Assembly: GCA_051294375.1 (NCBI GenBank)
Contig: CM119265.1
Span: 18,586,631-18,650,630, forward strand
Length of the DNA stretch: 64,000 bases
Direction of reading: 5' to 3'
Source of the DNA: Paraspadella gotoi
Lineage: Eukaryota > Animalia > Chaetognatha
Shown here: one piece after another, positions 132-62,700 of the stretch
How positions within the stretch are numbered: position 1 is the first letter of the stretch
Layout: each line of letters begins with the position of its first letter
Program-made: the position numbers and the translations under genes
Notes under the pieces: model-generated
What the model was told of the DNA's origin: nothing
The model's input: the letters and a program-made list of their open reading frames with translations, nothing else
The model's database searches: none

Positions 132-3100
132 AATCGCGCTCAAAAGCTCTGGAAGCAGGGTTTGAATAGGCAGCGTGTTATAAATCGGTTTCACAAAATC
201 ATAATGGTATTATAAATGTTTTCGTGTTAAATTTGTATAATATGTACATAAACAGTGGTAATTTTATATTCCATGGGAACTGGGAAATCTAAATTTTTGT
301 TGCGCCGTTTCATATGAATCTTTAATAGAGCAAACGTCTACATAGTACCTACTGTGGTGGACTAAAATCCAGCAACCGTTCATCAGTGACCATTGGTGCA
401 GGAGGCTAGTCATTCCCCTCCTAACCCAAAGGTCCGGGGTTCTAGCCGGGTGGTCGCCTCGCAGTTAAAAGGGACGGGGCACTTAACCCGCCTGTAACAC
501 GGTGTTACAGCCTGATTCAAAGCTCAGAGACTGCTGATATAGAATGGTTCTGTCACTAACTCATAACAATTATTACTGTCTCTTCATTGGTGAGCTCGAC
601 TTTCGAACATAGCAACAACAACACTTTCAGGTGACATGCTTTAACCTGGCAACGCACTTTCTGCCAACAACACATCAGGCGACATGCCTCAACTTGGTGA
701 CGAACTTTCCACAACCAATTCACTGAAGAGACGCAACAGACTTATCCCTAGGGGAGGGGGGATGTATGGTGGATTAAAATCCACAAACCATTTATCAGCG
801 GCCATTAGTGCAGGAGGCAAGTCATTCGCCTCCCAACCGAAAGGTCCAGGGTTCTGTCCCGGTGCTCGCCTAGCAGTTAAGAGGGATGGGGCGCTTAACC
901 CGCCTGTAACACGGGGGTTACAGCCTAATCCGAAGATCAGGGACTGCTTATAATTATATTGAACGGTTCTGTCACTAACTCATAACATTTATTACTGTCT
1001 CTTTAGTACATATGAATACATGCAACTTCTCTGGTAACGCTTTAAAAAAAGAATTCTATTACCGTCTGACTTTTTTGGGTTCGTTTGTTCGTACACTAAA
1101 TTGTTGTTTATAGTGAAAAATTTAAGGAGCCTGCATTGGGAAATTTAGGGCGACACTTTACTTTCTATAAACGCATGAATACTCGAGCTTTCTTTGATAT
1201 AGTTTGCGGTCAAAATATTTTCTGTTTGTTCACGTTCTCAATTCTTTTCCTACTAGGAACGACCCAATTCTCACAAGGCCAACCTGATAAGCGCCGAGCA
1301 CTTGTTGGCCGTGGACGCGGCGACGACCCGTCGTAAAATCAGTATCATGCCGAAGATATTGGACGAAGACGAAGACGAAGTTGACGAGGCCGCGACGGCC
1401 ACGGAAGCGCCTTCGTCGTCGCTGCTCGAAAAGAAAGAATCGCTGGAGGAAGAAGTTACAGACTTAGAATTCGAGATGGAAATCGTCCAACTTCGATTGC
1501 TGTATTCCAACGTTCTTGGTATTTTCATTCTTTGGCTTATGCTACATGGGTGGGGACCATAAATCTGGACAAAATTTTAAAAAATCATTACTCTATTGTT
1601 AAGGATTTTCGAAATATGAATAAAGATTCAAATTATGCTCTTTCTTAACTTTTAGCCGATACATTAATTGTTTTGAATTTCTTTGATAAAATACTTATTT
1701 TGATGCAACAAATCCAACTGCTCTGTTTTCTCCGCGCGGTTTGGAAGAAAACTGTTTGATTACTTATTGTTTAATCACAATGTCTACAAATCCAATTCTA
1801 AAAAATGCCATATAAAATTATTAATAAAAATGGTTATTTATAATATAAGAATGATTTTGGATGGTATGCATTATATTTTTGTAAAAAAAATATTGAGGTA
1901 GTAGGGAAGGTTCGGGTAAGTTACTATTATAGTCCAATTAGCTGAAATTAAATGACATTAAAGAGAAGACATACTAATATTTTTCAGTGGTTATTTTTGA
2001 ATATGATTGTAAGTATAGCTTTCAAACTATGCAATGTAATGCGCGCGCATAAAAATGACTAAATGTTTTGAAAACATCCACAACGCCCTGTAGTTGCTTA
2101 CAAATTTATTTTATTTCATTGCATATGAAAAAATGACCGAAAAATCTTTTAGCAATCATTTTATTATTGTATCTCCAATCGTTAAGACGGGTCAAGTTTT
2201 GTACATATATATGGTCCCACCTGTGTATATATCACTCTTCTCCTCGGTTAATGTAATGGCATTTCTTTACAGAGGTCGCGACGCCATCCCTTGGCGTCGA
2301 CGTGAACAAACTCGGGGCCAACTTCATTATGAGAACCTCGGGGAACACGGTCAACTGTCATCTAGGATTCGTTTCGTTGCGAGTCAGTACTAGGATTAAT
2401 TTTTAAAAAAATTGAATTTTAAAAACGTTTCCTTGATTTAATTTTCCTTGCTGTTGCAGTGTTATCCTAGAAGTGGGAACGACAAGTGTGTTGATTTATT
2501 ACAAGGCCCGATCAACAAGGAAGAAGTGAACGAGCTTATATCTGTTTCGGTCGTTCAAGCCAATCCAAAGATGCCGGAATTCTTGTCGGTGTACGAAGTA
2601 CGTTATCTATATCATGGAGTTAATTTAATTTGTACTTTTTATCGCCGCAATAGCTTGCGCTAACTACATTATAGATCGCCTTTTCATAATAGTGTGTACT
2701 TGGTGATGAGAATATTTATCTAAATTTTCAGCTTCATACAATGTTTTTCATAATCGATAATTTTATAGCGATCCTAATATTTTTGTCGTATTTATTAATT
2801 AGATAAGTTTAAATAAATGTATATAAATTAACTATAATATAGATCGCCTTTTATAAAGGTGTGCAATTGTATGAAGTTAAAAAATTAGATATTGCTTATC
2901 ATCAATTCGATAATTATTTGATAATGATTGATGTTTTTTTAATATTATTCCCTTTGTTTAACCTCATTTATTTATTCTTATTTTTTATATATGCAGCCAA
3001 GTTTGTTATGTATAAAACTTAGTTTTCCTGTATCAAATTTGATTTTTTTGAGTATCAATGTTTGGCATGGGACTAGATTTTTGCTATACGATTGCGACGA

Positions 3101-59700: not shown

Positions 59701-62700
59701 CAGATCCTCCCCAACAACTGTCAATATTAATTTACGATGTTAATTTATTTTATTCTTTTATTCTCCATTTATTCTCCATTTATCATGAAATTGGTAAAAC
59801 CAATATAAAAATTATTTATTCATTAAATAAATAAGCTATCTTGCCCCTAACTTTTCCAATTTTTCACAATACATGAGCAATTCAGCATTGACATTGAGCA
59901 ATGAACATATATAATAACTATATAAATTATATATTTATTGTTTTTACATACATGTATCTTGTGTGGAGTGAAAGAATATTAACTCAAGGTTTATCCTTTT
60001 TTTGGCTACAATTCTCGTCTTAATTAATAAAAAAAATAAGTAGAAGGAATAAAATAAAGTATAGCACAAACGCAATTGTCTAATTGCCTCATCTCAGCAG
60101 CGCTCTTCCTTCCCGCAGGCTTTGGTCGCCGAGCTGGTGGAGACGGAACGAGCCTTCGTCCGAGATCTCTCGCTCGTCGTCGACTACGCCATCCCCCACG
60201 CCGCCAGTGGCGTCCTTCCCGCCGGCTACAGCGTCCAGGACATCTTCGGCAACATCCAAGAGATATTCGCCTTTCACAACAGGTCATTTGGCCTTAGAGT
60301 TAGAGGCGTTGAGAAAAAAAGGCGATTGAGGATGTTAAAAAAAAAATATAACCCTCGTAAGATCTTTATTCCGAATAATGATGCATTGTGAGGAGGCTAG
60401 CAATATTCGGCCCGTTATATTGAATTTAGCGCTTAGATCTTTAGTAAACTCGCCTCTTTCAATCCTTCGATCATTCTTCCTACCTTACCTTCGTCCAGTC
60501 ACTTCCTCCCCGAGATCCTTCGATGCCGCAGCAACCCTTCCATCATCGGCAAGACCTTCGTCAAGTGGCAGGAGAAGCTGCAGATGTACATCTCTTACCT
60601 CTTCCATCGCGAGAGAAACAACGCCTTTTTCCAGTCAACCTTCGTCAGAGAGTTCCTGGAGGCCTGCGACGAGAAGGTCCTGGCGGCGCAGAAGGAGGCC
60701 GCCATCAAGGCCGCCACGAGACTCAGATCCACGGTGGGTCTTGAATTATAAGTCGGCTGTGGCGGGGATCGACTTCATTCATTGTAGGACTGCTATGACG
60801 TTTACTGTCGTCGACTTCTGATCAAAAATGGGTGTCTTAAATTTCAATAATTTAAAATAAGGAAACAACGGCATCCAGTATTGAACACAAACACAGATTA
60901 AAATTGATCTATCCCCCCCCCCCGCCGCCCCCTTCGCCACCACCGTCATTTCCTCTCAGGACATCTCCCCTTCGGAGATCGAGGGTCGACGCGTCAATCT
61001 GACGGATACGCTCCTCCGCCCGGCCGCTCGTCTCGCCAAGTACGAGAAGATCCTCAAGCAGCTCGTCAAGTGTCTCCTTCGATCGCGCGAAGACACCGGC
61101 GAGGTCGATCTCGCTCTCTACATCGTCATGGACATCCCGCTCGTCGTGAAAAACCACCTCGTATTATCCAGGCGAGAAGTAATGGTTGTTGCGACGTTGC
61201 ACGACGGAAACACGACAAAGTTGTAGACATCGTTACACGTTAGACTTGCTTGTTGTTTATGAAAAATCATTATTATTTTTGCATTTAATTTTCGTTATGT
61301 TATGTTATGATATGATATGTTATGTTATGATATGTTTTTGAGTCTTTGGATAAGAAATAAAATTTGCTTACTTTAGCAATGTTTCCGGTGACTACAATAA
61401 CGCTCTCCTTCTCTCTCTCTCTCTCTCTCTCTCTCTCTCTCTCTCTTCTCTCTCTCTCTCTTCTCTCTCTCTCTCTCTCTCTCCCTCTCTCTCTCTCTCT
61501 CTCTCTCTCTCTCTCTCTCTCTCTCTCTCTCTCTCTTTCCCACTCTCTCTTGTCTCCAGAATGGAGGACGTTCCCGTCCCTCTCGACTCCCTGGGCCGCC
61601 TTCTTCACGCCACGACGCCTACCGTATTTGGGAGGACGCCTGGCGGTGGAAGGAGCGCCACGTTTTCTTGTTTCCGGATAAAATTTTGTTGACGCGTCGC
61701 CGCCGCGAGGCGCCCGACGCCGAAGATCGATACTTTTATCGCGCGATGATCAACATTCTCGACGTCGCCATCAAAGGTTGGAGACGATTGGAGGGCGGAT
61801 CGAAGGGCTCAGGCGGTCAAGGGGTGTTTAAAGGCCATCAGAGAAAAAAAAAAGGAAAAAGTTCAATTTAGCCAAAAAAAATTTTTATTAATATATGTAG
61901 AATGTATATATTGTGGTGGTATATTCACACCGCCTCACGTCCACCATCGTTCGGCCAGTACCATTTGCTCGGAGGGGCAACCCACCATCCCAGTTGTTGC
62001 CATTCATCCACAGCCCTAACGACTTCCCTCTACGTTGGCAAAGCGAAACCGTCCGAGGGTTACCGCGCCAGTGACTGTAGGCGTCACTGAGACTCGGAAG
62101 CCCCCAAAGCCAACAGTAAGATGCCCATCACAATGGGCATCACTGGCAACCCGGCTGTTGCTATAGCATATTTATTATTAGCATCATTCAGACGATAAAT
62201 TTTTGATAGTTCTAATAAAATAAAGTAAAATACCCTAATCGTTCAACCCCTTTACACTCAGACGACCCCATACCAATCATACCAATCAATACTTTCAACT
62301 TTTAACCATTCCTTAACCCTATTTAATTAGAAACTTAAAGAACCCCTATCCACGCCCCAACTCGCTTTTTCCTACCTCTAGCCTCACCTAACCTAAACAA
62401 ACATTGAAAAATAGTGATCGACAAACAGTAGGTCTTCTCAGAGTCAAATTGTTCATCGGCACTCCCACTTTCGTCTCCGCGCAGAAAACCTTGCCGACGA
62501 CGATCGTAAGTTCGAGATGTGGTACGCTCTGGCCGAGGTCGAGAAGCTAACCTTCCAGGCCAAGACCTTCTTCGTCAAGCTGGCCTGGCTCTCCGAGCTC
62601 AAGGCCATTCTCAGGGCCAAAGGAGCGGGCGACTTCGAAATTCCATCGGACGAGAGGCCTCCGACTTCGCAGAGAAGCGCGTCCGAGGAGAGAAGGATGG

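Follow-up and report, generated by a model that had tools for sequence, protein, structure and literature searches.

Four intronic stretches in a 64,000-nt segment of the genome of the chaetognath Paraspadella gotoi (GenBank assembly GCA_051294375.1, contig CM119265.1, positions 18,586,631 to 18,650,630 of the forward strand; hereafter, the window) have their parts in the order of a P5-permuted twister ribozyme, and the locus raises the question of which kind of mobile element brought them there and what a self-cleaving RNA would contribute to it. Here, we identify two of these stretches, c1 and c2, as the long terminal repeats (LTRs) of a single non-coding retrotransposon of 653 bp, i.e., a miniature terminal-repeat retrotransposon (TRIM). 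The other two, c3 and c4, are likely solo LTRs of related elements. We favor, with moderate confidence in the mechanism as a whole, a model whereby this Helenus-type TRIM and its solitary LTR-like relatives work like a plant LTR retrozyme. An initial annotation of the DNA had counted four insertions of elements described as SINE/retrozyme-like (SINE, short interspersed element). All four stretches do lie between exons; however, c1 and c2 belong to one element, so that the insertions number three, and the borders had to be moved to those in Table 1.

The LTR element at positions 353 to 1005

The evidence that the element is repeated comes from contigs of nine sequencing runs of one organism, from three studies, which cover the region. 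Contigs of four of the nine runs were mapped at 80% likeness on positions 200-1200 (6294, 9577, 2393 and 833 contigs per run), and contigs of three on c4 (3831, 1387 and 241). The runs are not independent, in that X1 and X3 come from the same sample and the best-matching run is possibly that from which the window itself was sequenced. Thousands of these contigs are 1-20% unlike the window and, thus, derive from other loci. Summed contig depth, which is not equal to copy number, is 10^4 to 10^6 over 336-1015 and 34-110 in the flanks, a difference of three to four orders.

Evidence of several kinds identifies 353-1005 as one LTR element. First, c1 and c2, of 234 and 241 bp, are identical at 201 of 234 aligned positions (86%) and enclose an internal part of 178 bp; BLAST within the window likewise joined c1 to c2 (84%, 237 columns) and linked neither to c3 or c4. 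Second, contigs diverge from the reference at sharp positions, 355/765 on the left and 586/1003 on the right, and 144 contigs with differing flanks behind 586 in run X1 set a copy floor of that order. Contigs from other loci also bridge both junctions between the LTRs and the internal part. Third, a tRNA-Trp-like primer-binding site directly follows the 5' LTR. By eye, 12 of its 14 letters equal those of Helenus-2_SyJa-I and Gypsy-32-I_NVi (PMC10886601, Fig. S2), and 13 of 14 do so with the majority contig letter at 596. A G-rich polypurine tract, which is 11 nt long in most contigs (position 751), precedes the 3' LTR; the window has four such runs, counted on both strands. Fourth, the letters of loose contig ends point to ATAT as the target: it occurs at the 3' end in four of four runs at 586 and at the 5' end in two of four runs at 355 and in both runs listed at 765, although loose-end letters cannot pair the left and right flanks of one copy. 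ATAT is reported as the target motif of an ant TRIM (PMC3532108) and of Gypsy elements of the 412 and Idefix clades (PMC3276498). Altogether, c1, the internal region and c2 have the architecture of a TRIM, an assignment that we make with high confidence.

Table 1. Positions of the LTR element, its solitary LTR-like relatives and their parts in the window
Feature	Position	Strand	Basis or remark
Full non-coding LTR element (TRIM), 653 bp	353..1005	+	Contig depth and contig ends; sense in intron of VPS13-like gene
Likely 4-bp target duplication, left copy	349..352	+	Right copy 1006-1009, 3/4 letters alike
5' LTR (c1), CA at end	353..586	+	Similarity to 3' LTR; loose ends before 355 and behind 586
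tRNA-Gly(CCC)-like stretch	386..458	+	ARAGORN at 85% threshold, one of 12 window calls there
P5-permuted twister fold of c1, predicted cut 484/485	461..534	+	1/21 descriptor deviations
P1 segment of c1, 6 nt	478..483	+	4/6 self-pair; full with majority letter at 481
Internal region, 178 bp, non-coding, repeated in genome	587..764	+	High depth; contigs bridging LTR junctions
Primer-binding site, tRNA-Trp-like, directly behind 5' LTR	587..600	+	By-eye match to published sites
G-rich polypurine tract, 13 nt	750..762	+	2 nt before 3' LTR; one of 4 such window runs
3' LTR (c2)	765..1005	+	Loose-end letters behind 1003 begin CA in 4/4 runs
tRNA-Gly(CCC)-like stretch	798..870	+	ARAGORN at 95% threshold; one of 2 window calls at 90%
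P5-permuted twister fold of c2, predicted cut 896/897	873..947	+	2/21 descriptor deviations
Single LTR-like unit (c3)	28245..28507	-	Antisense in intron of MFS transporter gene; inside 75-bp dispersed repeat
P5-permuted twister fold of c3, predicted cut 28355/28354	28300..28382	-	1/21 descriptor deviations
P1 segment of c3	28363-28356	-	8/8 self-complementary
Single LTR-like unit (c4), decayed	61912..62165	+	Sense in intron of RhoGEF-PH gene (weak host-gene matches)
Decayed twister fold of c4	62034..62114	+	Broken at 62047, 62055, 62061, 62092, 62093

The initial annotation had been right that these are abundant, non-autonomous retroelements; the contig families are of high copy number and sharply bounded. 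Its view of them as independent tRNA-headed SINEs with a twister body, mobilized by a long interspersed element (LINE), draws on the tRNA-like head near the 5' end, a length of ~250 bp and the many single copies, and twisters are indeed known from a LINE (PMC8501958). We consider this view very improbable. The primer site, the polypurine tract and the 4-bp target preference are those of an LTR element; a LINE-like, poly-A or simple-repeat 3' tail is lacking; the sequence separating c1 from c2 is a repeat in its own right and is linked to these LTRs at other loci; the 5' end is fixed, 33 nt upstream of the tRNA-like part; and the twister is internal rather than 5'-terminal as in Perere-3. Nor is the tandem arrangement of a non-LTR retrozyme supported, the unit being LTR-internal-LTR.

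ATAT also fits a different source, since Naiad elements prefer TA repeats too (PMC8557442). The LTRs could then be pseudo-LTRs of a non-autonomous, Naiad-dependent Penelope-like element, c1-internal-c2 a partial tandem and ATAT a reflection of (TA)n bias. Naiads form pseudo-LTRs, lack hammerheads and have many invertebrate hosts (PMC8557442), and the non-canonical LTR ends and the lack of a visible internal region for c3 and c4 are in line with such an origin. By contrast, look-alikes of a primer site and a polypurine tract lie exactly at the two junctions, the 5' ends cluster at a single position and show no variable truncation, the flanks become mixed A/T after ~4-6 letters with no continuing TA repeats, and neither an inverted part nor a 30-40 bp tail is seen. 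Thus, we regard this origin of the whole element as improbable, while the ribozyme module by itself may derive from a Penelope-like/Naiad element.

Two further observations concern the internal region. Positions 606-735 hold two diverged copies of a ~55-bp unit. Moreover, two contigs that match window positions 585-743 combine the internal region with ~305 upstream bases that do not fit the c1 LTR; this upstream stretch is possibly another LTR type or a helper sharing primer site and leader.

Twister folds in three repeat types

For the ribozymes, we used a descriptor in the P5 order, built on the Rfam twister-P1 consensus line and Table 1 of PMC8501958. Its 21 constraints comprise 12 letters and 9 pairs, and P3 had in addition to contain at least six Watson-Crick pairs. 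It was adjusted after the copies had been seen, by widening the P3 slack and requiring a Watson-Crick P3, and its own shuffles were then rerun. As the initial annotation had described, all four stretches have the order of parts of a P5-permuted twister, and c1, c2 and c3 pass with one or two deviations, whereas 167 dinucleotide-shuffled windows gave no match with two or fewer deviations and six with three. The complete fold that had been ascribed to all four copies holds for these three and not for c4 in the window, which has six deviations and, taken alone, is at chance level (52 comparable matches, with equal stems, in the 167 shuffled windows). In c1 to c4, P5 pairs at 6/6, 6/6, 5/5 and 6/6 positions, P3 at 8/8, 7/7, 7/7 and 7/7 and T1 at 2/3, 3/3, 3/3 and 3/3. 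Among the 12 conserved letters (GA, UAA, GC and U-NNN-AAGC), c1 and c3 have all, c2 has 11, the last L4 letter being changed, and c4 has 10, its window copy being without GA, UAA and most of P4.

The contigs show what these families look like beyond the window. The conserved letters missing in c2 and c4 are present in 98-99.6% of summed depth, and at the break positions of c4 the fold-fitting letter has 95-99.6%; among these positions of c4 are the catalytic G and the A of the cleavage site, as well as two pairs of P4. Of the differences listed, most contigs come closer to the fold than the copy in the window in four of five cases for c1, three of three for c2 and five of six for c4, and at these core differences 93-99.6% of depth keeps the fold. 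Because the majority letters fit the fold, c4 is a decayed member of a family of well-formed twisters. Further genomic copies and conservation at the level of the family are, thus, in evidence.

Covariation points in the same direction. The previously quoted pairings of P5 (GCAGUU/GACUGC, GCUGG/CCAGC and GUUGGC/GCCAAC) and of T1 were all found in the sequence, and T1 differs between the families while staying paired: three sequences occur among the three types compared, and the Rfam P1 consensus supplies a fourth. T2 is invariant across types and, therefore, uninformative on covariation. All four copies share the start TRTGGTGG followed by a hairpin, as had been noted; this 8-mer also occurs at two other places, i.e., six in the window.

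Free-energy folding of the single cores gave no pseudoknotted fold (z of -2.2, -2.2, -0.1 and -3.3), and MAFFT did not bring the four cores into register. In Rfam, neither the window as a whole nor any single element had a significant tRNA or hammerhead match. A degenerate P3-L4 pattern matched three of the four window copies as well as 5 viral and 52 metagenome loci; none of these 57 has a full P4 (at most 3/4) or looks like a twister, so that this search found no relatives beyond the host. On the strength of the descriptor, the contig majorities and T1, we are highly confident that the twister fold is real in these families, and it is quite likely that the twisters cleave.

The two solitary units are harder to classify. 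The heads and tails of c3 and c4 resemble one another with scores reached by 2 and 7 of 500 shuffles, and the two share the ribozyme as well; toward c1 and c2, the similarity of heads and tails is not beyond chance. In the contigs, c4 is a high-copy family with sharp ends, with ATAT at its 3' end (62165) in two of three runs; in one run, contigs continue through the window's own ATAT. c3 has three duplicated letters at its ends, the first of which differs from all five empty sites of its host repeat. Because of the shared start, the ribozyme, the sharp ends and the flank motif, we read both units as solo LTRs, and a TRIM architecture is likely for them too.

The host of c3 is a ~75-bp dispersed repeat with empty copies at 33218-33288, 39952-40023, 40272-40353, 58507-58581 and 59785-59855; the copy interrupted by c3 is the sixth. 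Concerning orientation, the intronic insertions in sense direction (353-1005 and c4) have breaks in P1 self-pairing, T2 or catalytic letters, whereas the antisense c3 keeps 12 of 12 letters and its palindrome; with three loci, this contrast is anecdotal.

A proposed replication route

How could twisters in both LTRs serve a retrotransposon? We propose that RNA polymerase III (Pol III) would begin transcription at the 5' LTR's tRNA-like stretch, likely an internal promoter, and would probably read through the element. ARAGORN at default found no tRNA in the window; at lowered thresholds, it called tRNA-Gly(CCC) in both LTRs, rated as pseudogenes, and no tRNA-like fold in c3 or c4. The Pol III-type head ascribed earlier to the whole family is, thus, retained for c1 and c2 but not for c3 and c4, and scans for A and B boxes did not make them stand out in any of the window copies. 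In sense orientation, the element of 653 bp is without a run of four T (T4), as are only 25 of 2534 window stretches of the same length, and because of this lack Pol III could read through both twisters. At 61965-62010, a part covered by few contigs, the majority and loose-end letters of the c4 family resemble A and B boxes of the Pol III type more than those of the window do.

The twisters would then quite likely cut at the two predicted sites, 484/485 and 896/897, and free an RNA of 412 nt that would contain the equivalent of a single LTR and lack terminal redundancy. Because the redundancy needed for strand transfer would be lost, this unit RNA would have to be circularized before it could be fully copied. 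Plant retrozyme RNA of the same geometry is argued to require circularization for full reverse transcription (PMC4918200), and RtcB closes animal retrozyme RNAs (PMC7229834). By analogy, we think it somewhat probable that a tRNA ligase closes the unit RNA and that it is reverse-transcribed round the circle from a tRNA-Trp primer. Copying and insertion would be carried out by the enzymes of a Gypsy-type helper, to which the primer site, the polypurine tract and the ATAT preference point. Self-priming by pairing of the primer site with the LTR (-14.5 to -17.3 kcal/mol) does not stand out from shuffles (-14.7 +/- 1.9 kcal/mol); contig joints that jump back by ~410 bases are no evidence of circles, since the similarity of the two LTRs in the reference accounts for them; and run X9, which is RNA only by guess, covers intron sequence too and is uninformative on expression.

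The P1 segment suggests that cleavage may involve two copies. Between T1' and UAA there are only 6 or 8 nt. This segment is self-complementary throughout in c2 and c3; in c1 and c4, it becomes so with the majority contig letter. As a hairpin, P1 would form 1 bp (c1 and c2) or 2 bp (c3 and c4) at +2.5 to +5.6 kcal/mol; as an intermolecular duplex, it would form 6-8 bp, at -8.3 kcal/mol for c2 and -9.5 kcal/mol for c3. Animal hammerheads whose helix III is palindromic cut in dimeric form and leave the monomeric circle intact (PMC4209133), and such dimeric hammerheads are also described in PMC7229834. By this analogy, the two P1 segments of one transcript might pair and the twister halves swap between its LTRs, a step to which we give even chances; we are equally divided on whether cutting needs two LTR copies. 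If it did, solo LTRs, host pre-mRNAs and the closed circle would all be spared.

The same LTR retrozyme could instead work with each twister cutting as a monomer and the self-complementarity of P1 being incidental. For twister cleavage, PMC6154101 and PMC8501958 report that P1 is dispensable or that 2 bp of it suffice. This makes the dimer step less compelling and cleavage of the monomer possible; moreover, any hairpin is partly self-complementary, and c3 and c4 are related, so that the three cases are not independent. Against this, the central 4 nt of P1 self-pair in three types with three sequences, for which the chance would be ~0.002 if the types were independent, and the broken palindromes of c1 and c4 are minority states. 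We regard monomeric cutting, a variant of the proposed route rather than a departure from it, as possible but doubtful.

Several observations weigh against the LTR retrozyme as proposed here. The comparison with Rfam suggested by the initial annotation gave no twister match at E≤1 in the whole window, which, taken to the letter, speaks against the fold; the best hit, twister-P1 on c3, had 15.9 bits and E 1.1 versus a gathering score of 67.2, and in separate scans of c1/c2 and c4 there was no twister, nor was a twister-P5 match listed. The 5' side of P2 is just 3 nt long in c1 and c2, where P2 has two Watson-Crick pairs (2/3), and 3/4 pairs form in c3 and c4, compared to 4 bp in Table 1 of PMC8501958, as in the Rfam P1 consensus; because no insertion there is listed among the contigs, the short P2 seems to be a trait of the c1/c2 family. 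The lack of T4 is weak evidence, as 14% of mononucleotide shuffles lack it too. Target duplications at the window sites are imperfect (3/4 for 353-1005, 2/4 for c4 and 3 bp for c3), and the LTRs end in TA..CA in the c1/c2 family and TG..TA in the c4 family rather than TG..CA, although some published Helenus LTRs also begin or end with TA, so that TG..CA is typical but not strictly defining. For c3 and c4, neither an internal region nor a primer site nor a tRNA fold was seen. The 412-nt unit is 55% paired, no better than shuffles (z of -0.7), compared to the ~70% reported for retrozyme circles. Finally, no helper element turned up, the search having stopped short of the whole genome.

The short P2, the missing Rfam match and the weakly folded unit RNA would also suit an ordinary Helenus-type TRIM that uses normal strand transfer on uncut RNA and carries the twister as a captured, inactive or rarely cutting passenger, all the more so as published Helenus elements work without a ribozyme. 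However, a dead passenger should have drifted, while two families that differ in stems, heads and tails have retained the catalytic letters and the two pseudoknots in their majority state, as has c3, and the T1 changes are compensatory; for this reason, we consider a passenger unlikely. Altogether, these findings support the LTR retrozyme as the preferred reading. Its most specific form is tentative: the element would be the first LTR retrozyme of an animal and would contain the first twister in nature to be gated by dimer formation. Driven by Pol III, it would have its two twisters trade strands by way of the palindromic P1, cut only the full-length transcript and leave a cleavage-resistant circle for a Gypsy reverse transcriptase to copy.

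Genomic setting and comparison with known systems

The window contains exons of VPS13-like, sugar transporter, MFS, PP2A B'' and RhoGEF-PH genes, whose proteins are 34-62% identical to their relatives, mostly from various animals and spread across several invertebrate groups. For the VPS13-like host gene of 353-1005, the VPS13 family matches lie downstream on the forward strand, and the intron position was read from the sequence. Other features lie apart from the element: a sequence at 49302-49477 (forward strand) that resembles U2 small nuclear RNA and is probably a divergent U2 or a pseudogene (38.8 bits, short of the gathering score, 46); an AT-rich fold-back of ~980 bp at 34075-35057 with a 75% self-match and a related piece at 48093-48376; an inverted pair, 29385-29854 and 30480-31004, with an 18-bp minisatellite, near the window's N run and with a related end at 13087-13135; and a 70-bp tandem repeat of about five units at 56671-57018.

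If correct, the proposed model implies that retrotransposition by way of a ribozyme and a circle arose again with a different catalyst, promoter type and primer, and it would assign a biological role to the rare P5 twister. A sharp handle on whether twisters, like hammerheads, switch on by pairing of two copies is provided by the palindromic P1, and the families would represent a group of genomic twisters overlooked by the Rfam models. The initial annotation knew of no animal family with this layout. Separately, both halves are in print, a tRNA-like stretch in the LTR in Helenus and a ribozyme in the LTR in plant retrozymes; their combination with a twister in an animal was not found. Likewise, the titles, abstract openings and passages covered by the literature search, which did not extend to most subscription journals, Repbase or Dfam, described no twister in an LTR or TRIM, and the terms 'dimeric twister' and 'twister dimer' did not occur within the papers listed for twister dimers. 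What we did not find in print is, thus, the Helenus layout, retrozyme logic and a twister together in an animal, each layout alone being known.

Helenus/TRIMp3 (Kojima 2024, PMC10886601) comprises non-coding animal TRIMs, 311-1263 bp long, both LTRs of which contain a tRNA-like stretch. The 353-1005 element shares with them the primer site, the purine tract, a likely 4-bp duplication and a presumed Gypsy helper in animals, and wasp families even have a tRNA-Trp primer site (PMC10886601). In the Helenus consensuses examined, however, the tRNA-like part lies near the 3' end of the LTR and is followed by a T run, whereas in 353-1005 it lies near the 5' end and is followed by the twister, with no T4. 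The accessible parts of PMC10886601 do not mention a twister or self-cleavage and, of ten twister/end motifs in its consensus file, none is twister-like (line breaks may hide matches).

Closer in logic are the plant LTR retrozymes (Cervera 2016, PMC4918200), which have a type III hammerhead in both LTRs. They resemble 353-1005 in the ribozyme in both LTRs, the non-coding internal part, the primer site and the purine tract, and also in a likely 4-bp duplication, the probable solo LTRs and the predicted unit RNA without terminal redundancy. They differ in using a hammerhead and a tRNA-Met primer and in forming strongly self-paired circles of 600-1000 nt, where 353-1005 has a twister, a tRNA-Trp-like site, a predicted unit of 412 nt, a tRNA-like head and an animal host; a preprint of July 2026 places LTR retrozymes mainly in plants (bioRxiv 10.64898/2026.07.22.740005). 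The element, therefore, works like an LTR retrozyme in our model without being a member of that group as defined, there being no hammerhead match but a twister fold instead. Metazoan non-LTR retrozymes and the hammerheads of Penelope pseudo-LTRs share with it the animal host and a short palindromic helix beside the cut but consist of type I hammerheads in tandem repeats without LTRs, primer site or purine tract (PMC7229834, PMC4209133).

Among twisters, the T-variants of Perere-3 in Schistosoma (Liu 2021, PMC8501958) are likewise tied to an invertebrate retrotransposon. They are of P1 type and sit at the 5' end of an RTE LINE, where P1 is completed by the target site; by contrast, the window twisters have the P5 permutation and lie inside LTRs. 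A P5 stem is present in 1% of annotated twisters (PMC6154101). With type-P5 twisters, those described here share the order of parts, the 12 consensus letters, T1, T2, P3, P4 and P5; they differ in being missed by the Rfam models, in a P1 that is a self-complementary segment of 6-8 nt and, in one family, in a short P2.

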